Counted from the first letter of the stretch, positions 7,572 through 20,879 are shown. The stretch is DNA of 64,000 bases from Bacteroidota bacterium (GCA_030706735.1 JAUZNZ010000014.1:54629-118628); one strand, 5' to 3'. Notes: generated from the sequence alone by a model not told the origin. Numbers and translations: made by a program.

Positions 7572-10166
7572 ATGAGCTACCAGTCTTCCCAGGGGTTGCA
7601 GCAGTTCAAGAACCTGGTTGGGATAAAATTCCAGCTTTACAATAGTTTATTTACCTCCCTGCCCTTTCACCGGATCGAGAAGACGGGCATCCTGCTATCC
7701 CTGCTGCTGACGGTCTGTGAAGACGGTTATAAGAAAAAATTAAGTCCCCAGCAGATCCTGGACGAATTCTTTCAAAAGCACACGACCTATACCAGCGAGC
7801 GGGACCGTGCCGACATCATGTTCCGATTCGTACAGTACGTCGAGCGGCAGATCGTGCTCTTCGATGCGCTGGAAGATGCCGCTTTTCGCCATGTGAACGA
7901 TATGGGCGGGACGGGAACCGTGAAGCATCTCATCTCCGAGATCCTGCAGACCAACAAGGAGGAGGAACTGACTGAAAAGCTGAAAGACTATTCTGTGCGG
8001 ATGGTCCTGACTGCTCATCCCACGCAATTTTATCCCGGCGCCGTCCTGGGGATCATCAATGACCTCTCGCGGGCCGTCGTCGAGAATAATGCGGGGGAGA
8101 TCAACCTGTACATGCAACAGTTAGGCAAGACGCCTTTTTTGAAGAAGCAAAAGCCGACACCCTACGATGAAGCGGTCAGCCTGATCTGGTATTTGGAGAA
8201 TGTTTTTTATGCGGCCTGCGGGAAGATCATCAGCAGCCTCCAAAATCAATTCCCGCATGCGCTCGACAAAAAGAATGCCGTGATCAAGATGGGCTTTTGG
8301 CCGGGCGGCGACCGTGACGGCAACCCCTTCGTAAATACCGAGACCACGCTGCGCGTGGCGGATGCCTTGCGGGGGGCGATCATCAAATGTTATTACCTCG
8401 ACGTGCGCAGGCTGAAACGCCGGCTCACGTTCAAGGGCGTCGACACGGTGCTGACCGAACTGGAGCAGAAGCTGTTCAATAACCTGTTCATCCCCGATCA
8501 TAAGAGCGACCTGTCGCCGCAGGATCTCCTCAAGCCCCTGGTCGAGATCAGGGAAACGATCATCTACCAGCACAATAGCCTCTTCGTGAACCTCGTAGAC
8601 AGCCTGATCGGAAAGGTCATGATCTTCGGGCTCCACTTTGCCACCCTGGATCTCAGGCAGGACAGCGTGGTGCATGGCGCCGTACTGGCGGCCATTGCGG
8701 CCGCGGAAAAGCTGGTGCCGGCAGACTACGCATCCATGAGCGAGGCGGAGAAATCTTCCGTCCTCACGGGGCTGACCGGTACGGCGAAACCCGAGCTGTA
8801 TGAAGATCCCCTGGTCAGCGACACGCTGCGCTCCCTGGCGGCGGTGAAAACGATCCAGACCCTGAACGGCGAAGAGGGTTGTAACCGGTACATCATCAGT
8901 CAATGCAATAGCGCGTTGAACGTGCTCGAAGTATTCGGGCTGTTCCTGCTGAGCGGATGGAAAAAAGATAAGCTGGCCGTGGATATCGTTCCCTTGTTCG
9001 AAACGGTGGACGACCTTCAGCGGGCCTCGGCGATCATGAAGGAATTATATGAGAACAAGACCTATAAGCGTCATCTGCAGCAACGTAACAATATGCAGAC
9101 GATCATGCTGGGCTTTTCCGATGGGACGAAGGACGGAGGATATCTGATGGCGAACTGGGGCATTTATAAGGCGAAGGAAGAACTGTCGCATATCTCCAAA
9201 GAATATGGCATCAAGGTGGTATTCTTCGATGGCCGCGGAGGCCCGCCGGCACGGGGTGGGGGCAAGACCCATAAATTCTATGCCTCGATGGGAAAGAATA
9301 TTGCCAATCGCCAGATCCAGCTTACCATCCAGGGCCAGACGGTCAGCTCCAATTTCGGGACCATCGACACGGCGCAATATAATATCGAGCAGCTCCTGCA
9401 TGCGGGTATCTCCAATGACCTGTTCTCATCCAAGGAGGTGACCTTGAAAGACGACGAGGAGGAACTGTTGCAGGAGTTGGCGGAAGAGAGCTACAAGGCC
9501 TACTCCACACTAAAAGAACATCCTTCTTTCCTGCAGTATTTAAATGAGGTCAGCCCCTTGCGATTCTACAATGAAACGAATATTGCCAGCCGGCCCACCC
9601 GGCGGAAGAATTCCGGCAAGCTGGAATTGAAAGATCTGCGCGCCATTCCCTATGTGGGATCCTGGAGCCAGATCAAGCAGAACGTGACCGGCTACTACGG
9701 CGTGGGGAAGGCCCTTCAGGTCCTGGACAAAAAGGGGAAATGGAAAGCGATCAAGCAATTATATGCCGATTCGATGTTCTTCAAGACCCTTCTCGATAAT
9801 TGCGAAATGGCGATGAAGAAATGCTTCTTCCCGCTTACGGAGCACTATTCCAGGGACCCGGTCTACGGCGAGATCTGGATGATGATCTATAACGAATTCG
9901 AACTGACGCAGAAATACATCTTTTCGCTTTCGGGCAAGAATGAACTGATGGCCGACTATCCCGTGGAACAACTGTCCATCCAGATGCGGGAGCGGATCGT
10001 CCTGCCGCTGAGTACCATCCAGCAATATGCGTTATGCAAATTCCAGCAATTCGAAAAGAGCGACAAACCCCAGAAGGGCGAAGAGAAGGCGTTGAAAGAG
10101 GCCTACGAGAAACTCATCATTCGCAGTTCCTTCGGGATCATCAACGCCGCGCGGAATTCCGCCTGA
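7572..10166 (+). CDS. ppc: phosphoenolpyruvate carboxylase
   Basis: VLTAHPTQ, WPGGDRDGNPFV, MLGFSDGTKDGG, FFDGRGGPPARGGG, LRAIP, C-terminal GIINAARNSA. Confidence 0.96.
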   Translation: MSYQSSQGLQQFKNLVGIKFQLYNSLFTSLPFHRIEKTGILLSLLLTVCEDGYKKKLSPQQILDEFFQKHTTYTSERDRADIMFRFVQYVERQIVLFDALEDAAFRHVNDMGGTGTVKHLISEILQTNKEEELTEKLKDYSVRMVLTAHPTQFYPGAVLGIINDLSRAVVENNAGEINLYMQQLGKTPFLKKQKPTPYDEAVSLIWYLENVFYAACGKIISSLQNQFPHALDKKNAVIKMGFWPGGDRDGNPFVNTETTLRVADALRGAIIKCYYLDVRRLKRRLTFKGVDTVLTELEQKLFNNLFIPDHKSDLSPQDLLKPLVEIRETIIYQHNSLFVNLVDSLIGKVMIFGLHFATLDLRQDSVVHGAVLAAIAAAEKLVPADYASMSEAEKSSVLTGLTGTAKPELYEDPLVSDTLRSLAAVKTIQTLNGEEGCNRYIISQCNSALNVLEVFGLFLLSGWKKDKLAVDIVPLFETVDDLQRASAIMKELYENKTYKRHLQQRNNMQTIMLGFSDGTKDGGYLMANWGIYKAKEELSHISKEYGIKVVFFDGRGGPPARGGGKTHKFYASMGKNIANRQIQLTIQGQTVSSNFGTIDTAQYNIEQLLHAGISNDLFSSKEVTLKDDEEELLQELAEESYKAYSTLKEHPSFLQYLNEVSPLRFYNETNIASRPTRRKNSGKLELKDLRAIPYVGSWSQIKQNVTGYYGVGKALQVLDKKGKWKAIKQLYADSMFFKTLLDNCEMAMKKCFFPLTEHYSRDPVYGEIWMMIYNEFELTQKYIFSLSGKNELMADYPVEQLSIQMRERIVLPLSTIQQYALCKFQQFEKSDKPQKGEEKALKEAYEKLIIRSSFGIINAARNSA

Positions 10167-10325
10167 GGATCTCCTCCGGCCTGTCCTTTTCAAAATGAAA
10201 AACTTTTTTCCCGATTTAACAAGGGTGCGGCAGATTGCCTGTTGCCGTCCCGGCTCCCCTTTTTTGTCTGAAACCCCCGGCAATCCTGAGCCCGGAGCCG
10301 GTTTTCCCGCGATCCCCGGCTGCAT

Positions 10326-10340
10326 TGGCATGCATTTGGC
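10326..10340 (+). promoter_or_regulatory. possible sigma54 (-24/-12) promoter TGGCATG-CATT-TGGC
   Basis: GG-N10-GC spacing, 2 differences from TGGCACG-N4-TTGC, 23 nt upstream of the porin ATG. Confidence 0.35.
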
Positions 10341-10363
10341 CATCCATTGCGACAAAACAGTTT

Positions 10364-11419
10364 ATGTGTAAAAGAATGTCGGCCTTATTCGGGCTCTTCC
10401 TCGTCGTTTATCAGGGATATGGACAAGATGCGGCTCCGGCCAAAAAAGACACGGCCCCTGCCTTGTCGATCACCGGCTCGGCAGATTTTTATTATCGTTA
10501 TGCCTTTAACAGGGCGGCAAGCGGCATGACCAGCTTTACCAGGACCCATGACCAGTTCACGCTGGGCATGGCCACCGTCAAATTGGAGCACAAGACGGCC
10601 AAATTGGACATGGTCGCCGACCTCGGCTTCGGCCCCAGGGCGCTGGAATTTGCTTATAACGATCAGGGGATCGTCCAGGCCATTAAACAATTATACATAA
10701 GCTACTCGCCCAACGCCTGGGTGAAATTCACCGGCGGTACCTGGGCCACGCATATCGGTTACGAGGTTCTCGATGCCTATGCCAACCGGAACTATAGCAT
10801 GTCCTATATGTTCACCAACGGCCCGTTCTCGCACACCGGCGTACGCGCTGATTTTACGGTAGGCAAGAGTGGGTTCATGATCGGGATCGCAAACCCCACG
10901 GATTTCAGAAGCGTACCCGCTCCGGGGAAGGAAAACAAGAACATGATCGCCCAGTATAGCTACGCGCCCAGCGATCATTTCCATCTCTATCTGAACTACG
11001 TAGGCGGCCAGGACCCGGCAGACAATAAGATCCATCAATACGATCTCGTCGCCACCATGAAAGCCAACTCGCTATTCAGCGTCGGCCTGAATGGCACATA
11101 CAACCATTCCGGCTTTTCTTCCGACAATTATGCTGCCGGGCACAACTGGTATGGAGCGGCCGCCTACTTCAATCTGGATCCGGCGCCCTGGTTCGGCCTG
11201 ACCCTGCGTGAAGAATATTTTAGCGATAAGGACGCGGTCAAAACGCCGGGAGGATCTGTTATCGCCAGCACGCTTTCCGCGAATTTCAAGGTCGATGGCT
11301 TTATTTTCATTCCGGAGTTCCGGCTCGACGCCGCCAACAATCCCTGGTACCCGAAAAGGGATGGGACGAACAGCAAGTCGGACGCGAGCCTCCTGCTGGC
11401 AGCGATCTATTCATTCTGA
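10364..11419 (+). CDS. outer-membrane beta-barrel porin (amt-associated type), copy A
   Basis: Signal peptide from ATG 10364 (the track start at 10235 is likely too long); alternating beta-strands; terminal AIYSF. Confidence 0.85.
   Translation: MCKRMSALFGLFLVVYQGYGQDAAPAKKDTAPALSITGSADFYYRYAFNRAASGMTSFTRTHDQFTLGMATVKLEHKTAKLDMVADLGFGPRALEFAYNDQGIVQAIKQLYISYSPNAWVKFTGGTWATHIGYEVLDAYANRNYSMSYMFTNGPFSHTGVRADFTVGKSGFMIGIANPTDFRSVPAPGKENKNMIAQYSYAPSDHFHLYLNYVGGQDPADNKIHQYDLVATMKANSLFSVGLNGTYNHSGFSSDNYAAGHNWYGAAAYFNLDPAPWFGLTLREEYFSDKDAVKTPGGSVIASTLSANFKVDGFIFIPEFRLDAANNPWYPKRDGTNSKSDASLLLAAIYSF
10586..10869 (+). repeat. 284-bp inverted repeat, arm 1 (inside porin A)
   Basis: Hand alignment to the reverse complement of 13754-14037 gives 8 mismatches in 284 nt. 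Confidence 0.9.
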
Positions 11420-11437
11420 ATCGGCTTGTTAAGCGAC

Positions 11438-11480
11438 AAAAAAAGGGAGCCGTCTCAGGGTAACCTGAGACAGCCCCCCC
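11438..11480. terminator. intrinsic terminator between the convergent porin A and amt genes
   Basis: GCCGTCTCAGG-GTAA-CCTGAGACAGC stem; the preceding A7 tract gives a U tract on the minus strand. Confidence 0.75.
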
Positions 11481-11503
11481 CAAAGTATGGAGAGAATCCG
11501 AAA

Positions 11504-13102
11504 TTAAGCTTGCGACGGATAAGCCTCCACGCCGTGCTCGTACACGTCGAGACCGCCTGGGCCCGTTTCGCCTTCTGCCGGCACGCGCAGCTTCCAGGGA
11601 TGGGGCAGCGCATTGACCACGGACATCAGTACCCAGGCCACCGCGAAGGTCGCCAGGGCCATCGTGATATTACCGATAAGCTGAGCCTTCAGTACGGCTG
11701 TGCCGCCACCATAGAACAGACCCGCCACGGGAGAGGAGTTGTCCGCGCCGGTTGGTCCGGTGGCGCCATAGACTCCACAGGCGAACAATCCGAGCGACCA
11801 GGTTCCCCACATGCCGCATGCGCCATGCACCGCAACCGCGCCGATGGGATCATCGATACGCAGATATTCCAGGAGGTTGACGGCGAGCCATACTACGACG
11901 CCGGCAACGAGCCCAAGCATGATCGCGCCGAATGGAGACACCCAGTAACAGGGGCAGGTGATGGCGACCAGGCCGCCGAGGAAGCCGTTGGTCGTATAGC
12001 CGAGATCGAACTTTCCTTTCGTTTCACCGAACCAGAGCGCCATGTACATGGCCCCGATGCCGCCACCGCAGGCCGCGAGGGTGGTATTGGTCGCTACGCG
12101 GCCGATACCCTGCATGTCCACCGCCGAGAGCGTGCTTCCCGGGTTGAACCCATACCATCCGAACCAGAGGATGAAACCGCCCACGGCCGCCACCGTGAGG
12201 TTATGCGGAGCGGGCATGCCGCCTCCGTCCCGTTTGAATATGCGGCCGATACGCGGTCCGAGAACGATCGCACCCGCGAGGGAGACGACGCCTCCGATCG
12301 TATGAACGACGGTTGATCCGGCGAAGTCACGGAACCCTTGTCCCAGTCCGGGTAAGAAATGATCCTTCGAACCCATGAGCGCCAACCAGCCGTCGGGTCC
12401 CCAGGCCCAATGGCCGATTATGGGATAGATGAAACCGGTAACACCGATACTATAGAGAATGTCGCCACGGAAACCGGTGCGGCCGATCATGGCGCCTGAC
12501 GTAACCGTAGACGTCGTATCCGCAAAAGCAAATTGGAAGATCCAATGCGCCAATATGGGAACTCCTGTCGAGCCGTACGTATCCGGAATATTTTGCAGGA
12601 AGAACCAGGGTTTGGGATCTCCGCCGGCGAGCGCTCCTCCGCCCCAACCGATCAGGCCGTTCCCTTGTCCGAACATGAAGGCGTATCCGATGCCCCAGAA
12701 CAGGATGCCGCAAATGCAGGTATCGAATATACATTCCATCAATACGTTGACGGTTTCTCTTTTGCGGGCAAATCCTGCTTCCAGGAATACGAAGCCCGGT
12801 TGCATGCCGAATACCAGGAAGGCGGCAACGAGAGTCCAGATCGTATTGGCCGTATTCATCAAGGTTGTCTCATGCGCCGTATAGGCCGGCGCGCCCTGGG
12901 CGTGCGCAGGCGTACCCATGAGGATGGCCGGTAAAAAGCCAATTGCGACCAGGACCAGGAACAGTCCGATCATCTTACCGGCGAACATGCCGCCGGCTAT
13001 GCGCCATTTCTCGGCTTTTGTTAATTTGACCATGGGGGCCAGGGGTTCTGCTTGTCCGCTGCCCTTGAACAACTTGCTAGTGATGAAATTGGATACTCCC
13101 AT
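11504..13102 (-). CDS. amt: ammonium transporter (Amt family) with N-terminal extension
   Basis: GFVFLEAG, FQFAFA, DFAGSTVVHTIGG, LWFGWYGFN, AVHGACG, GLDVYEHGVEAY. Confidence 0.95.
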   Translation of the reverse strand: MGVSNFITSKLFKGSGQAEPLAPMVKLTKAEKWRIAGGMFAGKMIGLFLVLVAIGFLPAILMGTPAHAQGAPAYTAHETTLMNTANTIWTLVAAFLVFGMQPGFVFLEAGFARKRETVNVLMECIFDTCICGILFWGIGYAFMFGQGNGLIGWGGGALAGGDPKPWFFLQNIPDTYGSTGVPILAHWIFQFAFADTTSTVTSGAMIGRTGFRGDILYSIGVTGFIYPIIGHWAWGPDGWLALMGSKDHFLPGLGQGFRDFAGSTVVHTIGGVVSLAGAIVLGPRIGRIFKRDGGGMPAPHNLTVAAVGGFILWFGWYGFNPGSTLSAVDMQGIGRVATNTTLAACGGGIGAMYMALWFGETKGKFDLGYTTNGFLGGLVAITCPCYWVSPFGAIMLGLVAGVVVWLAVNLLEYLRIDDPIGAVAVHGACGMWGTWSLGLFACGVYGATGPTGADNSSPVAGLFYGGGTAVLKAQLIGNITMALATFAVAWVLMSVVNALPHPWKLRVPAEGETGPGGLDVYEHGVEAYPSQA

Positions 13103-13185
13103 TGCGTTTAGTTTTTGTGAATAAAAGTTGATTTGTTGATTGGGATCTCAGATTAGGATGCGGTTAACTCAAGCAGGAAAAAAAA

Positions 13186-14298
13186 TCAGAATGAATAGAT
13201 CGCTGCCAACAAAAAGCTCGGGTCCGTCTTGGTCGCGGTTCCATCGTTCTTGGTGAATAATGTTTCACTGGCATTATCGATCCTGAATTCCGGTATGAAG
13301 ATGAAGCCGTCGACCTTGAACATGGCCGAAAGCGTGCTGGCGATCACATTTGCCCCGGTCGCTCCACCGACCGGATGTAATTTGATCCCGTCCTTGTCGC
13401 TGAAGTACTCCTCGCGCAGCGTCAGGCCGAACCAGGAGGTGGGGTCCAGGTTGAGGTACGCGGCGCCGCCGTACCAATTATGTCCCGTCGCGTAGTTGTC
13501 GGCCACATAACTGGAATGATTATACGTGCCGTTCAGGCCCACGCTGAACTGGGAACTGGCCTTGATGGTCGCCACGAGATCGTATTGATGGATCTTATTG
13601 TCGTTCACGTCCCGCCCGCCGACGTAGTTCAGATAGAGATGGAAATTATCGCTGGGCGCGTAGCTATACTGGGCGATCATGTTCTTATTGCTCTGCTGGG
13701 AGGAGGGCGGCGTTCTCCAGTCCGTGGGATTGGACACGCCGATCATGATGCCGCTCTTGCCTACCGTGAAATCAGCGCGTACGCCGGTGTGCGAGAAGGG
13801 GCCGTTGGTGAACATATAGGACATGCTATAGTTCCGGTTGGCATAGGCATCGAGGACCTCGTAACCGATATGCGTGGCCCAGGTGCCGCCGGTGAATTTC
13901 ACCCAGGCGTTGGGCGAGTAGCTTATATATAATTGTTTAATGGCCTGGACGATCCCCTGATCGTTATAAGCAAATTCCTGCGCCCTGGGTCCGAAGCCGA
14001 GGTCGGCGACCATGTCCATTTTGGCCGTCTTGTGCTCGAGCTTTACGGTAGCCATTCCCAATTTGAATTCATCATGCGAACTGGTGAAGCTGGTCAGGCC
14101 GTTATTGGCTTTCGTAAAATCGTAGCGATAATAGAAATCTGCCGAGCCGGTGATCGATACCGGGGCGGCGGGGGCCGGTTTGCTGCTGTCGGCGGCTTTC
14201 CTGCTGCTGTCCGTTCCCTGGGCCGATGCTGCCAGTGCGCCGGCGGAGATCAATACGGATAATGCGGTTTTCCTAAACATGGGGATGTTCCTTAGCAT
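13186..14298 (-). CDS. outer-membrane beta-barrel porin (amt-associated type), copy B
   Basis: Signal peptide (alternative start 14280); close paralog of 10364-11419; terminal AIYSF; co-oriented with amt with no terminator between them. Confidence 0.87.
   Translation of the reverse strand: MLRNIPMFRKTALSVLISAGALAASAQGTDSSRKAADSSKPAPAAPVSITGSADFYYRYDFTKANNGLTSFTSSHDEFKLGMATVKLEHKTAKMDMVADLGFGPRAQEFAYNDQGIVQAIKQLYISYSPNAWVKFTGGTWATHIGYEVLDAYANRNYSMSYMFTNGPFSHTGVRADFTVGKSGIMIGVSNPTDWRTPPSSQQSNKNMIAQYSYAPSDNFHLYLNYVGGRDVNDNKIHQYDLVATIKASSQFSVGLNGTYNHSSYVADNYATGHNWYGGAAYLNLDPTSWFGLTLREEYFSDKDGIKLHPVGGATGANVIASTLSAMFKVDGFIFIPEFRIDNASETLFTKNDGTATKTDPSFLLAAIYSF
13754..14037 (-). repeat. 284-bp inverted repeat, arm 2 (inside porin B)
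   Basis: Same alignment as arm 1, about 97% identity. Confidence 0.9.
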
Positions 14299-14674
14299 TG
14301 CTGGTGGTTTTGGTTAAAAAAATGGTTGTGGACAAGTACGGCTGGCAAAGCGCATCGTTCGCTGGGGTAAGCTGGTGGAGGCCCTTCACAATTTGACCAG
14401 GACGGTGAAGCAGGCATTCCAGGTTGTGGGAGTTTTCGACGACGGATTATATTATAATTATTAATAATTAATTATTATTAAGCTAATATAGTATATTGAT
14501 GTAGTTTTTTGTTTTAATAATTTATATTTTATAATTAATAATATGATCTAATTGAGGGAGTTTTTGTTGGTTAAATAAATGATAATCAATTATTTTAATA
14601 CTGTTCGACCAGTAATTCGGGGAAATAAAATATTGAAGACATTTAAAAAAATAGTTAAAAACTGAGCATTATTC

Positions 14675-14706
14675 AAAATAGAAAGGCCGGGAGACTACCC
14701 CCGGCC
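14675..14706 (-). terminator. intrinsic terminator of gltBD
   Basis: GGCCGGG/CCCGGCC stem followed on the minus strand by TTTCTATTTT, 35 nt after the gltD stop. Confidence 0.75.
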
Positions 14707-14740
14707 GATGATGTACGCGATGGCAAGCTTAATTATATAA

Positions 14741-16210
14741 TTATATCGTGATCAGACTTTGATCCCTCCTCTCCAACAGCGAGCTCCCGACCAGGTATTC
14801 ATCCACTTTCCGCGCGCATTCGCGGCCCTCGCTAATGGCCCAGACGACCAGGGATTGGCCCCTCCGCATATCGCCCGCCGTAAAGATCTTGGCAATATTA
14901 GTTTGGTACTCCTTTTCCGTGGCGGCGACATTCCCGCGCCCGTCCAGCTCGATGCCCAGCTCGCCCAGCATGCCTTCATGCTGGGGGTGGACGAAGCCCA
15001 TGGCGAGCAGAGCCAGTTCGCAGGGGATCTCACGTTCGCTGCCCGGCACTTCCACAAAATGGGCGGCCCGTTCCTCTTCCGTGAACTTCCACTCCAGGTC
15101 AATGATCTTCAACGCTCTCAGATTACCCTTTCCGTCGCCGACGAACTCCTTGGTCGCGATCGCCCAGTGCCTCTCCGCCCCTTCTTCATGAGAAGAAGAA
15201 GTTTTCAGGATCATCGGATAGGTCGGCCAGGGCATGAACGGGGTCCGGGAAGAGGGGGGCTTCGGCAGCAGTTCGAACTGCGTGACCGAACGCGCCTTAT
15301 GCCGGTTCGACGTGCCTACGCAATCGCTCCCGGTATCGCCTCCTCCAATGACGACCACATGCTTATCGGTGGCCCAGATCTCGTCCCCCTCTACAGCCGT
15401 ATCGCTGACTCGTTTATTCTGTTGTTTCAGGAAATCCATCGCGAAATGGACGCCCTTGAGTTCGCGTCCCGGAATAGGGAGGTCGCGCGGGATCGTCGAG
15501 CCGCCGGCGAGCACCAGGGCATGGAATTCACGCAGCAGGTCATTGACGCTGACGGTCGTGCCCACTTCGGCGTTGCACCTGAACACGACGCCCTCTTCTT
15601 CCATCAGGCTGATCCGTCTGTCGATCACCCATTTCTCAAGCTTGAAATCAGGTATGCCATAACGCAGCAATCCTCCGGGCCGGTCGTCCCGTTCGAATAC
15701 GGTCACCTGATGCCCGGCGATATTCAATTGATCGGCGGCAGCCAATCCGGCCGGGCCGGAACCGACCACGGCAATTTTTTTCCCCGTCCGCAAGCTGGGC
15801 TTGCGCGCCTTTACCAGCCCTTTATCGAAGGCGATTTCAATGATGTGCTTCTCAATTTCTTCGATGGCGACGGCGGGCTGGTTGATGCCGAGCACACAGC
15901 TGCTTTCGCAGGGAGCGGGACAAATGCGCCCGGTGAACTCCGGAAAATTATTCGTGGAGCTCAGGATCTCGTAGGCCTCTTCCCAGCGCTGGCGGTAAAC
16001 GGCGTCATTGAATTCAGGAATGACGTTCCCAAGCGGGCAGCCGTGATGGCAAAACGGAATGCCGCAATTCATGCAACGCGCCGCCTGGTGGTTCAGCTGC
16101 TGGCCGGAATACCGGGACACGAACTCCTTATAGTCATTTCTCCTTTCCTGCACCGGCCGTTTGCCGGGCAACTCCCGCGTAAATTCCAGGAATCCCGTTG
16201 GTTTACCCAT
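14741..16210 (-). CDS. gltD: glutamate synthase small subunit
   Basis: Starts MGKPTGFLEF (ATG 16210); CMNCGIPFCHHGCP, VVGSGPAGL, GGGDTGSDC, GDMRRGQSLVVWAI. Confidence 0.97.
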   Translation of the reverse strand: MGKPTGFLEFTRELPGKRPVQERRNDYKEFVSRYSGQQLNHQAARCMNCGIPFCHHGCPLGNVIPEFNDAVYRQRWEEAYEILSSTNNFPEFTGRICPAPCESSCVLGINQPAVAIEEIEKHIIEIAFDKGLVKARKPSLRTGKKIAVVGSGPAGLAAADQLNIAGHQVTVFERDDRPGGLLRYGIPDFKLEKWVIDRRISLMEEEGVVFRCNAEVGTTVSVNDLLREFHALVLAGGSTIPRDLPIPGRELKGVHFAMDFLKQQNKRVSDTAVEGDEIWATDKHVVVIGGGDTGSDCVGTSNRHKARSVTQFELLPKPPSSRTPFMPWPTYPMILKTSSSHEEGAERHWAIATKEFVGDGKGNLRALKIIDLEWKFTEEERAAHFVEVPGSEREIPCELALLAMGFVHPQHEGMLGELGIELDGRGNVAATEKEYQTNIAKIFTAGDMRRGQSLVVWAISEGRECARKVDEYLVGSSLLERRDQSLITI

Positions 16211-16364
16211 GTTCGTTCTTGTTGATTCAGTTAAAAACCACAGAGAACAACGGAGTGGCTGAGTCACACATGAGAGCCGACTCCGCGTTCTCAGAAAGTT
16301 GAGGCTGTCCTCTGTGGTCCGTTCCGGCCATAGGCCGGCGACCTGCGCGATCTTCGGGGAAGCC

Positions 16365-19300
16365 CTAAGAACGCACGGTCTGTTTATGACTTTTCTCCAT
16401 CAGGACCTTTTTATAATCCTTCGGGAATACTTTTACAAAATTCTTCACCTGATTTTCGAGATCGTCCAACACAAATTTGGCCACCGTGCTGCCGGTATAG
16501 GCATAATGACGATGGATCAACTCCCTGATCTCCGCAATATCTTCTTCGCCGACCGGATCGAGGTCGACCATCTCGGGGTTACAGAGGGAGGGGAACTGTC
16601 CCTTTACATCGTACACATAGGCGATCCCTCCGCTCATGCCCGCGGCAAAATTCCTGCCGGTATTGCCGAGAATGACGATCCGCCCGCCGGTCATATATTC
16701 ACATCCATGGTCGCCAACGCCTTCGACCACTGCCCTGACCCCCGAATTCCTGACGGCGAAACGTTCGCCGGCTTTGCCGCGGATAAAGGCTTCACCGGAG
16801 GTGGCGCCGTAAAAGGCGACATTCCCGATGATGATATTCTCTTCCGGAACGAACCCGGCCCATGGGGAAGGATAAACGATCAGCCTGGCCCCGGACAACC
16901 CTTTTCCGAAATAGTCATTGGCATCCCCCTCCAGTTCCAGCGTGACCCCCCTGGTATTGAACGCTCCGAAGCTCTGCCCGGCCGTCCCGGTAAACTTGAA
17001 GTGGATACAATCTTCCGGCAGACCGGCGCTCTTGTATTGTTTGGAGATCTCATTGGACAGGATCGTTCCGGCTGTCCGGTCCGTATTCCTGATCGGGAAG
17101 GCCGCATACACTTTCTGCTGCCGCTCGAGCGCGGGTCTTGCCGCCTCCAACAAGCGCCAATCGAGTACATCGGCCAGCCCATGATCCTGTTCCTCCATTT
17201 TGTGCAATCCGGTATACATCGACTCCGGCTCTTTGTAAAGGATGGGAGATAGGTCGAGTTTGCTGTATTTCCAGTGATGGATATTTTCCCTGACGCCCAG
17301 GCAGTCCACCTGTCCGACCATTTCATTGACGGTGCGGAAACCCAGTTCGGCCATGATCTCACGTAATTCCTGGACAATGAACGTAAAGAAATTGACGACA
17401 TGATCGGCATTGCCCGTAAATCGTTTCCTCAATTCGGGGTCCTGCGTCGCTACGCCCACCGGACAGGTATTGAGATGGCACTTGCGCATGAGGATGCAGC
17501 CTTCGACGACGAGCGCCGTCGTGGCGAGTCCCCATTCCTCGGCCCCCAATAACGTGGCGATGGCAATGTCGCGGCCCGTTTTAAGCTGTCCGTCCGTTTG
17601 CAACACCACCCGGCTGCGCAATTTATTCTTTACAAGCGTCTGATGTGATTCCGCCAGCCCCAATTCCCATGGGAGCCCCGCATGCTTGATCGAACTGATC
17701 GGCGAGGCGCCTGTGCCGCCGTCGTGCCCCGAGATCAGGATCACATCCGACTTTGCCTTGGCCACGCCCGCCGCGATCGTGCCGACGCCGGCCTTGGATA
17801 CGAGCTTGACGCTGATACGGGCGGCGCGGTTGGAGTTTTTCAGATCGAAGATCAGCTGCGCCAGGTCTTCAATCGAATAAATGTCGTGATGCGGCGGGGG
17901 CGATATGAGGCCCACACCGGGCGTGGAGTGACGGACGCGACCGATCCATTCATCCACTTTATGGCCGGGCAGCTGCCCGCCCTCGCCGGGCTTTGCGCCC
18001 TGCGCCATCTTGATCTGCAATTCGTCGGCCATACTGAGATAATAGCTCGTTACGCCAAAACGCGCCGAGGCGACCTGTTTGATGGCCGAACGCATGGAGT
18101 CTCCGTTAGGCAGCGGCTCATAGCGCATTTCATCCTCTCCGCCTTCGCCGGTATTGCTCTTCCCTCCCAGCCGGTTCATCGCGATAGCCAGGGTGGAATG
18201 CGCCTCGTGGGATATGGAACCGAAGGACATGGCGCCGGTAGCGAGCCGCCTGTAGATGCTTTCCGCCGGTTCGACCTCGTCGATGGGAATGGAAGGACGG
18301 TTACGCTTCAACGTAAGCAGGCTGCGGAGCGTGGCGGCCTTTTCGCTTTGCTCATTGACCAGCTTGGAATATTTTTTGAATACATTGTAGTCGTTCATCC
18401 GCGTGGAATACTGAAGGAGATGCACCGTCTGCGGATTGAAAAGGTGGAATTCCCCTTTCCGCTTCCACTGGTAAATGCCGCCCGGCAACAGCCTTTCTAC
18501 GGGCACGTCCTTCCGGCTGAATGCGAAATAGTGCTTGGCAAGGGTCTCCCTGGCCAGTTCGTCCAGTCCCATGCCTTCGATCCGCGAGGTGGCGCCGGTA
18601 AAGTACTTATCGACCACCGAACGGTTGAGCCCGATGATCTCGAATATCTGCGCACCCTGGTAGGACTGCAGCGTGGAAATGCCCATTTTGGAGAATACCT
18701 TGAGCAACCCGTCATTGACCGCCTTGATATAGTTCTTCTTGAGCTGTTCGGCGTCCAGGTCGGTTTGAAGGCGCTCCATCAGCTTCATATCCCGGATGGT
18801 CGACAGGGCCAGGTAGGGATTGATGGCCGTGGCGCCGAAGCCGATCAGGCAAGCGAAGTGGTGCACTTCCCAGACATCGCCCGCTTCCACGATAATGCCC
18901 ACCTGCCCGCGAAACCCTTTCCGGATCAGGTGATGATGTACCGCCGCCGTGGCCAGCAGGGAAGGGATGGGCGCGTGGTCCGAATCGATGGCCCGGTCGG
19001 ACAGGATCAGCACTTCAAACCCGTCATTGACGGCGTCCACGGCATAACGGCAAAGGCGCTCCACGCCGGCCTGCAGCGATCCCGGCTTGCCGTCGGCGCG
19101 AAAATACGTTTGCAAGGTCTTGGCCTGGAAGATACCGGTATCGATGCTGCGGATCTTTTCGAGCTCGTGATTGCTCAGTACAGGATGTTTCAGCGCGACG
19201 CTATGGCATGCGAGCGGATCCTCCTCCAGCATATTGGAATTGCCCCCCGCGAAGGTCGCCAGCGACATGACCAGCCGCTCGCGGATGGGATCGATGGGCG

Positions 19301-20879
19301 GATTGGTCACCTGGGCGAAGAGCTGTTTGAAATAGCTGCTGAGGTGCTGTGGCTGGTCGCTGAGCACGGCCAGGGGCACGTCCGTGCCCATGGAGCCGAC
19401 AGGCTCCTTGCCGTCCAGGCACATGGCCGCGATGATCGTATCGAGGTCCTCGGTCGAATAGCCGAAGGCCTTCTGGTATTTGAAGATCTGATCGTGTTCG
19501 AGATGGGTGAAGAGCACGCGCGGTTCCGGCAGCTCCTCCAGGCGGATCTTGTATTTATTGAGCCACTCCGCGTACGGTTTCTGCGAGCAGATCGTGCTCT
19601 TCAGTTCGTCGTCGCTGATGATCCGCTCCTGTTCGAGATCCACCACGAACATCTTGCCCGGCTGCAGCCTGCCTTTCTCCTTGATCATGGCCGGATCGAC
19701 AGGCAGCACGCCCGTTTCGGAAGCCATGATGACCCGGTCGTCGGTGGTGACGCAGTAACGGGAAGGACGGAGCCCATTGCGATCCAGCGTTGCGCCGATG
19801 ATCTTGCCGTCGGTAAATGAAATGGAGGCGGGGCCGTCCCAGGGCTCCATGATGGAGGCATGGAATTCATAAAACGCCTTCTTGACAGGATCCATCTGCT
19901 CGTTCCCGTCCCAGGCCTCCGGGATCAGCATCATCATGACATGCGGCAGCGAACGGCCGCAGAGCGTAAGCAGCTCGATGACGTTGTCCAGACAGGCGGA
20001 GTCGGATTGCCCCTCGGTGACGATGGGCAGCAGCATCTCCATCTCCTCCTTGGTGAAGTAGGGCGTGGTCAGGCTCTTCTCGCTCGTCTTGAGCCAGTTC
20101 AAATTGCCTTGCAGCGTATTGATCTCCCCGTTATGGGCGATGTACCGAAAGGGTTGGGCCAGCTTCCAGGAAGGGAAGGTATTGGTGGCAAAACGGCTGT
20201 GAATGAGGCCGAATGCCGATACGACGCGCTTGTTGCCGAGGTCGGGGAAGTAGCCCCTGACCTGCAGGCTGGTGAGCTGTCCTTTGTATACGACGGTTTT
20301 GTAAGAGAGGGAGGCGACATAGAATCCGATGGGGTCCTTCTTGACCGTGCTATTGATGGTATGACTGGCATAATTGCGCAGAAGGAACAGCTTCCTCTCA
20401 AAGTCATCCGCCTTTTTGATATGGTCGGGACAGGCGATGAACACCTGTTCCATTTCAGGTTCGACGGAAAGGGCTGTCGGGCCGATGCCCTCGGGATTGA
20501 CGGGCACCTTGCGGTAACCCAGTACTTCCAGCCCGAGCTTTTCGGCCGAACGGGAAAAAATATCCCGGCATTCTTCTTTAAGGCGGATATCGCGCGGGAA
20601 ATAGAGCATACCCACCCCATACTTGCCATACGGCGGAAGATGGATGCCCAGTTTAACGCATTCGTCGAAGAAAAATTCGTGGGGGGTCTGGATCATGATG
20701 CCGGCGCCGTCGCCGGTATTGTTCTCACAACCACATGCGCCCCGGTGCTCCATATTCTCCAGGATGGTTAGGGCATCCGAAACAATCTGGTGCGATTTGT
20801 TGCTTTTGATATTGGCAACAAACCCAATGCCGCACGCATCACGTTCAAATTCAGGCGCATATAAACCTTTTATTGCCAT
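16365..20879 (-). CDS. gltB: glutamate synthase large subunit
   Basis: N-terminal CGIGF amidotransferase, [51 protein letters not shown] domain. Confidence 0.98.

Follow-up and report, generated by a model that had tools for sequence, protein, structure and literature searches.

Evidence for segmental exchange between two inverted porin genes that flank an ammonium transporter gene in a soil Chitinophagaceae bacterium

The DNA analyzed here (the window, 64,000 nucleotides; GCA_030706735.1 JAUZNZ010000014.1:54629-118628) belongs to a metagenome-assembled genome (MAG) of a soil Chitinophagaceae bacterium, which comprises 100 contigs and whose relatives carry the names Puia or Flavitalea. It contains two porin genes, porA and porB, that lie as inverted copies on either side of an ammonium transporter gene, amt, and this report concerns the exchange of segments between them. 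The gene order is ppc (+), porA (+), amt (-), porB (-), gltD (-) and gltB (-), with thrABC and ilvA in the wider neighborhood. In an initial annotation, made from the sequence of the window, the porins were described as facing each other around amt. The two porin genes do converge, but porB is co-oriented with amt at a distance of 83 nucleotides. Because no terminator lies in this gap, porB and amt probably form a single operon, and porA alone converges on amt. The terminator proposed to be shared by both units is present as a hairpin between porA and amt, but its T-run is found on the amt strand only.

Both porins match the BBP2 profile of Pfam (PF07642) over positions 2-339 of 339 and above the gathering score (cut-off 26.2), with an E-value of 1.9e-57 and 195.5 bits for porA, and 2.1e-63 and 215.1 bits for porB. 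The amt product matches PF00909 over positions 2-399 of 399 (E-value 1.9e-102, 343.4 bits). Hydrophobic N-terminal leaders can be read from the sequence of both porins, and the signal peptide of porA, MCKRMSALFGLFLVVYQGYG/QD, is its own. In an AlphaFold2 model (predicted local distance difference test score 85.2, predicted template modeling (TM) score 0.79), porA folds into a 16-strand barrel in which loop 3 is long, and its best Foldseek matches in the Protein Data Bank are the 16-strand porins DcaP, VhChiP, Omp32 and OmpF (probability 1.0, TM score 0.6-0.66).

Table 1. Features of the porin-amt locus, in coordinates of the window
Feature	Position	Strand	Description
ppc	7572-10166	+	
ppc-porA intergenic region, putative porA promoter	10167-10363	+	GC-rich
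porA	10364-11419	+	351 amino acids; additional BBP2/OmpL-like porin of 16 strands, specific to the lineage and located between ppc and the amt 3' end
Conversion tract 1, porA arm	10586-10869	+	Residues 75-169; strands 2 to 7 with the invariant loop L3
Conversion tract 2 (older or patchy), porA arm	10937-11049	+	
Intrinsic terminator of amt	11442-11481	-	18-bp stem followed by T7, between convergent porA and amt; no T-run on the porA strand
amt	11504-13102	-	Ammonium transporter (PF00909); open reading frame of 532 amino acids
porB	13186-14298	-	370 amino acids; ancestral porin of the gltB-gltD-porin-amt cluster
Conversion tract 2, porB arm	13574-13686	-	
Conversion tract 1, porB arm	13754-14037	-	Mirror of 10586-10869
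porB upstream region, putative promoter/regulatory	14299-14740	-	AT-rich
gltD terminator	14685-14706		Within the porB upstream region
gltD	14741-16267	-	

The two porin genes align in a single codon register from positions 10441 and 14182 to their stop codons (inverted repeats I1-I3). Within this alignment, tract 1 is an inverted repeat of 284 nucleotides with 8 mismatches (97.2% identity) and a longest exact run of 56 nucleotides. A second conserved tract extends over 10935-11065 and 13558-13688 with 14 mismatches in 131 nucleotides (89%); it contains exact runs of 39, 25 and 29 nucleotides, and its core at 10937-11001 has a single mismatch in 65 nucleotides. Third-position identity between the copies is 0.90-0.95 in tract 1 and 0.85-0.90 in tract 2, but it falls to 0.3-0.65 across most of the remaining sequence and to 0.3-0.6 in the flanks of tract 2. 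The initial annotation had given the first tract with exact coordinates and mismatch count, and it had placed the second at ~10935-11065 and ~13560-13690. Its description of diverging N-termini, of the unlike blocks SVPAPGKE/TPPSSQQS and GQDPAD/GRDVND, and of diverging C-ends also matches the sequences.

The contrast between tract 1 and the rest of the gene is most evident at silent sites. The synonymous divergence (dS) between porA and porB is 0.125 in tract 1 and 1.81 elsewhere, a 14-fold difference. Silent-site differences number 6 of 87 inside the tract and 60 of 158 outside it (Fisher p = 3e-8), and none of 20,000 permutations of the silent sites matched the best low-divergence segment. 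Trees built on separate segments are incongruent, with porA and porB as sisters in tract 1 at a path length of 0.04, compared with 0.54 elsewhere. Orthologue pairs from other species encode nearly the same protein in the tract 1 columns, yet their dS values there are 1.3-3.1, which is saturated, and their third-position identity is 0.4-0.7, compared with 0.93-0.96 for porA and porB. As orthologues are saturated at silent sites in the very columns of the tract, constraint at the nucleotide level is not the cause of the identity, and tract 1 is a recent homogenization, or gene-conversion patch. The initial annotation had left the choice between gene conversion and recent duplication, and had called for conversion tests; the tests above support conversion. 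Recent duplication alone does not account for the data, since dS outside the tract is as high as that between species. The ratio of nonsynonymous to synonymous divergence is ~0.1 and both reading frames are intact, so that porA and porB both look functional as judged from sequence.

Variation within the species was assessed on contigs of four other deposited MAGs that are 99.8-99.9% identical to the window. Both arms are contained in two of them, L123 (17 kb) and L124 (12.5 kb), which are colinear with the window in the same orientation; the other two (L125 and L127) cover one side only. The suspicion that the repeat arms are an assembly artefact was addressed by this strain comparison, as the 8 mismatches of tract 1 recur in independently deposited MAGs. 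At one of these 8 discriminating sites, position 14019, porB of L123 carries the base of porA, which changes ATG to TTG. This single site may be the signature of a polymorphic conversion boundary.

The origin of the pair becomes apparent from comparison with relatives. Only two porin copies of this family are present in the genome. In related Chitinophagaceae genomes, 80 of 80 loci have one porin, with no second copy in the fetched flanks, and all 80 have the cluster order gltB-gltD-(amt)-porin-(amt)-ppc, which in the window occupies 7572-20879; the porin appears to be a fixed member of a nitrogen-assimilation cluster. At many of these loci an amt gene of ~30% identity lies upstream of the porin, instead of or besides the downstream amt. 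A scan of metagenomes with amt, which returned only relatives of at most 84% identity, yielded 80 loci, of which 16 had one detectable porin, 64 had none and none had two.

The closest single-copy relative is contig L119 from the Joint Genome Institute (JGI), whose ppc is 88% identical at the amino acid level and ~78% at the nucleotide level. Its layout is gltD-porin-amt followed by a convergent ppc, with no porin between amt and ppc. The porB gene is 88% identical to the L119 orthologue, and both its position and its N-terminus, beginning MLRNI, are those of the orthologues. The leader and upstream region of porA are unrelated to those of porB; the ppc-porA intergenic region is conserved with a sister population described below. 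The porB-amt pair is accordingly the ancestral unit, and porA is an additional, inverted copy that is specific to this lineage and was inserted between amt and ppc. Horizontal transfer of porA from a distant lineage was considered and rejected, as the A-type segments branch inside or beside the clade of porB and L119. An attempt to reconstruct the empty site did not succeed, because the amt-ppc spacer of L119 could not be aligned with the spacers of the window.

The sister population is represented by two JGI soil metagenomes (samples 3300067034 and 3300071300), each with two contigs of the locus. It is ~11-16% diverged from the window, with nucleotide identities of 88.9% for ppc, 89.2% for gltD and 84% for amt. 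One contig type (L122 and L130) has the layout of the porA locus, in which ppc and amt converge on the porin from either side, and its porin combines an A-type N-end (65% identity to porA and 15% to porB), a B-type body (82% and 97%) and an A-type C-end (93% and 62%). The other type (L128 and L129) is arranged as at the porB locus, with gltD, the porin and the start of amt in succession and a porB-type spacer after the porin stop codon. Here the upstream region and leader are B-type (26% identity to porA and 71% to porB), and both the body (89% and 86%) and the C-end (92% and 66%) are A-type. In segment trees, the ppc-side copy of the sister population falls inside the B/L119 clade for the 5' and middle segments, but for the 3' segment it groups with porA at a support of 100/100.

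In a third sample, the gltD-side copy (P0122) is B-type throughout, and the 98% identity of its body to that of the ppc-side mosaic makes it a plausible donor type for that mosaic. The flanks of all four sister contigs are unchanged and in the standard orientation. Judged from these alignments, blocks of ~0.3-0.95 kb have moved in both directions between the gltD-side and ppc-side loci, as patches rather than as fixed inversions, and chimeric porins exist in nature. The porin shuffling suggested by the initial annotation is thus borne out by different mosaics at both loci of the sister population. When metagenomes were scanned with a degenerate DNA pattern for DAANNPWYPK, a peptide of the A-type C-end, no match was returned, although the same pattern matches all known copies locally.

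Residue differences between porA and porB are distributed unevenly over the predicted barrel. In the predicted extracellular loops L1 and L4-L8, 36 of 113 positions differ, compared with 25 of 204 in strands and turns (p = 4e-5). By contrast, only 1 of 44 positions differs in L2 and L3 together, and loop 3, long and invariant in the family, lies within tract 1. On the structural model, the two copies would have a common pore but distinct surface-exposed parts, and recombination would reassort these surface modules.

Taken together, these observations are very probably explained by two functional paralogs that exchange segments by homologous recombination, mostly through non-crossover interlocus gene conversion. 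The inverted extra copy porA would have arisen in the common ancestor of the species and one sister population, and the copies would then have diverged mainly in their predicted surface loops. The genome contains recA, and exchange would presumably proceed by general homologous recombination of the RecA type. Most or all fixed events would have been resolved as non-crossover patches. The 284-nucleotide, 97% identical tract would be the latest patch in this lineage, covering the pore core and the constriction loop, and other lineages would have fixed other, larger patches in both directions, giving rise to the chimeric porins. Several points weigh against this explanation. Within one lineage, a strictly non-reciprocal process cannot by itself account for an exchange of A-type and B-type bodies between the two loci; should both types of sister contig belong to the same genome, crossovers or DNA import would have to be added. 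Furthermore, all sequences are metagenome assemblies, and the direction and number of the exchange events can be resolved only in part.

The swapped bodies argue for the main alternative, in which crossovers between the arms have occurred and perhaps still occur at a low rate. Such events, mediated by RecA, would invert ~2.9 kb, with re-inversion by a crossover elsewhere in the arms. They would not be programmed, but would shuffle modules reciprocally and place amt transiently behind the upstream region of porA. The geometry of such an inversion, as drawn in the initial annotation, is sound: the arms lie in frame in convergent genes, a crossover would yield two intact chimeric porins with amt behind the porA upstream region, and intact porins would be encoded in either isomer. 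The bodies appear exchanged in the sister population, with the B-type on the ppc side and the A-type on the gltD side, and both contig types occur together in each of the two samples. The similar divergence of the ppc and gltD flanks given above is consistent with one genome, in which case two crossovers would be the simplest source of the swap. For inverted repeats in Salmonella, 8-25% of recombination events carry an inversion (PMC8262849), and rare RecA-mediated flips are expected in principle.

However, no flipped gene order is present in any assembly examined, neither among the contigs of conspecific MAGs nor among those of the sister population. Nor was a protein that joins an A-type N-end to a B-type C-end, as expected at a flip junction, found among 5.8 billion protein clusters, where A-type features are confined to porA itself and the two sister-population mosaics. 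The gltD-side chimera has an A-type C-end, but a double crossover predicts a B-type one, so that an extra event would be needed. Two co-occurring strains with one large conversion each explain the swap equally well, with P0122 as a plausible donor. On balance we regard a contribution of crossovers as unlikely, though well short of negligible.

A more far-reaching version would be a recombinase-free "slow shufflon" driven by RecA, in which crossovers at varying points flip the 2.9-kb amt segment back and forth. Loop modules of the porins would then be reassorted between a nitrogen-regulated and a second promoter, amt would be coupled to each alternately, and a flip with a subsequent re-flip would have left its trace in the apparently swapped bodies of the sister population. 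We consider this improbable. If flipped molecules were present at a measurable frequency in natural populations, the locus would be a natural case of gene-altering inversion in environmental Bacteroidota that operates without a dedicated invertase.

It is very improbable that the locus is a programmed invertible element, either a gene-altering inversion or a promoter switch, in which an enzyme catalyzes phase variation of the porin and of amt expression. Programmed inversions flip frequently at inverted repeats, usually have a recombinase nearby and show orientation variants within species (PMC9881135). Of these properties, the locus has the repeat geometry: among gene-altering programmed inversions, an arrangement in which tail-to-tail genes carry the inverted repeats within the 5' halves is enriched, and some known invertible regions lack a nearby recombinase (PMC9881135). 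Searches of the genome with PF00589 and PF00239 revealed no tyrosine or serine recombinase gene within ~29 kb of the arms, in agreement with the initial annotation. The nearest PF00589 match (C7:35614) lies ~29 kb away in an open reading frame of 303 amino acids, a size like that of XerC/D, and the only PF00239 match is on another contig, C57. The repeats are long stretches of coding homology with graded identity and considerable divergence rather than short, sharply bounded sites, and all exchanges seen are internal patches with unchanged flanks. At the assembly level, a comparison of strains for both orientations found a single one, shared by the window, the two spanning conspecific contigs and the four sister contigs. 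The recombinational promoter switch proposed by the initial annotation is therefore not supported.

An origin of the tract without recombination, either as an assembly chimera between paralogs or through nucleotide-level selection after a single duplication, is hardly credible: all genomes are MAGs, and the tract does encode the most conserved part of the protein, including loop L3, but its longest exact run is 56 nucleotides, its mismatches recur between deposited MAGs, JGI contigs of other samples confirm the two-porin architecture, and orthologues with the same protein sequence are saturated at silent sites.

Exchange by gene conversion between inverted paralogs fits known kinds of system and involves no new mechanism: it combines concerted evolution as in tufA/tufB with chimeric paralogs as in the bab genes. 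In Salmonella and Escherichia coli, tufA and tufB are inverse paralogs kept partly identical by conversion (Abdulkarim & Hughes 1996 and Hughes 2000, as cited in PMC8262849), and the same interaction can in principle invert the intervening DNA with no dedicated recombinase. Gene conversion between inverted tuf genes and kan cassettes is RecAB-dependent (PMC8262849). The tuf genes, however, are hundreds of kb apart and almost fully homogenized, whereas porA and porB are 2.9 kb apart, have a dS of 1.8 and share short patches only. Their products are surface porins with differing loops, and no inversion has been observed at the porin locus.

The babA/babB genes and other Hop genes of Helicobacter pylori are paralogs that encode outer-membrane proteins; gene conversion makes chimeras of them, and they swap loci between strains. 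The likeness lies in the exchange of internal segments between outer-membrane paralogs, which gives chimeric surface proteins. The bab loci, in contrast, are dispersed in a pathogen and tied to its phase variation and its adaptation to the host, whereas the porins bracket amt in a soil bacterium and exchange the conserved pore core, with loops as passengers.

The locus also resembles gene-altering inversions and shufflons, such as those of SusC/SusD in Bacteroides fragilis (Nakayama-Imaohji 2009; PMC9881135), in that the repeats lie inside tail-to-tail genes and a flip would exchange the 3' portions of the genes downstream of a promoter and 5' end that stay in place. Those systems have a site-specific invertase, usually adjacent, short defined sites and both orientations within strains, none of which was found at the porin locus.

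With regard to function, a Formosa species (Flavobacteriia) has an operon of porin and ammonium transporter genes beside gltB/gltD, and these genes are very strongly co-induced (PMC6246565). The same placement of the porin-amt unit suggests by analogy a likely physiological role for porB-amt, although Formosa has one porin and the likeness is one of gene arrangement. Peptide uptake is proposed there (PMC6246565), and the substrate is putative at either locus. Conservation of the porin-amt-gltBD-ppc cluster across the Chitinophagaceae supports a dedicated outer-membrane entry route for nitrogen assimilation. The locus, for which a dated outgroup is available together with conspecific strains and a sister population, offers a natural case in which the pore core of an inverted porin duplicate would stay compatible while the exposed loops diverge and reassort. 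It also warns against taking every long inverted repeat in coding sequence for a switch.

Several minor features of the locus were noted. An 18-nucleotide inverted repeat with 1 mismatch (10251-10268 and 11435-11452) flanks the whole of porA. It was rejected as the ends of an element, because it coincides with the GC stem and T-run of the amt terminator and with a terminator-like sequence after ppc; it probably represents two terminators, but could be a remnant of porA insertion. A search of 9900-14900 against Rfam gave a single, sub-threshold match, on the terminator hairpin. In the window, the C-run in the stem of the amt terminator (11474-11475) exceeds that of three conspecific MAGs by 2 nucleotides, which reflects either a homopolymer length polymorphism or an assembly difference. 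Upstream of porB, the window differs from three conspecific MAGs by 7 clustered changes in 52 nucleotides (14550-14602), and the surrounding 17 kb are ~99.85% identical. The cluster was checked as a small inversion and is not one; it may represent a short regulatory patch that is hypervariable or was imported.

In a genome of the same genus (L033, G005:C1:1228500-1241500), gltB, ppc and the porin are each in several frames or carry an in-frame TGA. Numerous frameshifts are thereby suggested at this locus of a single-contig assembly, possibly consensus errors rather than gene decay. A look-up of the exact amt protein returned no record. The amt product is annotated with 494 amino acids in conspecific MAGs (L123; start at ~12988), compared with 532 from the upstream ATG. 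The additional 38 N-terminal residues are conserved in L119 and the sister population, where tblastn alignments begin at residue 1, so that the 532-residue form may be real.

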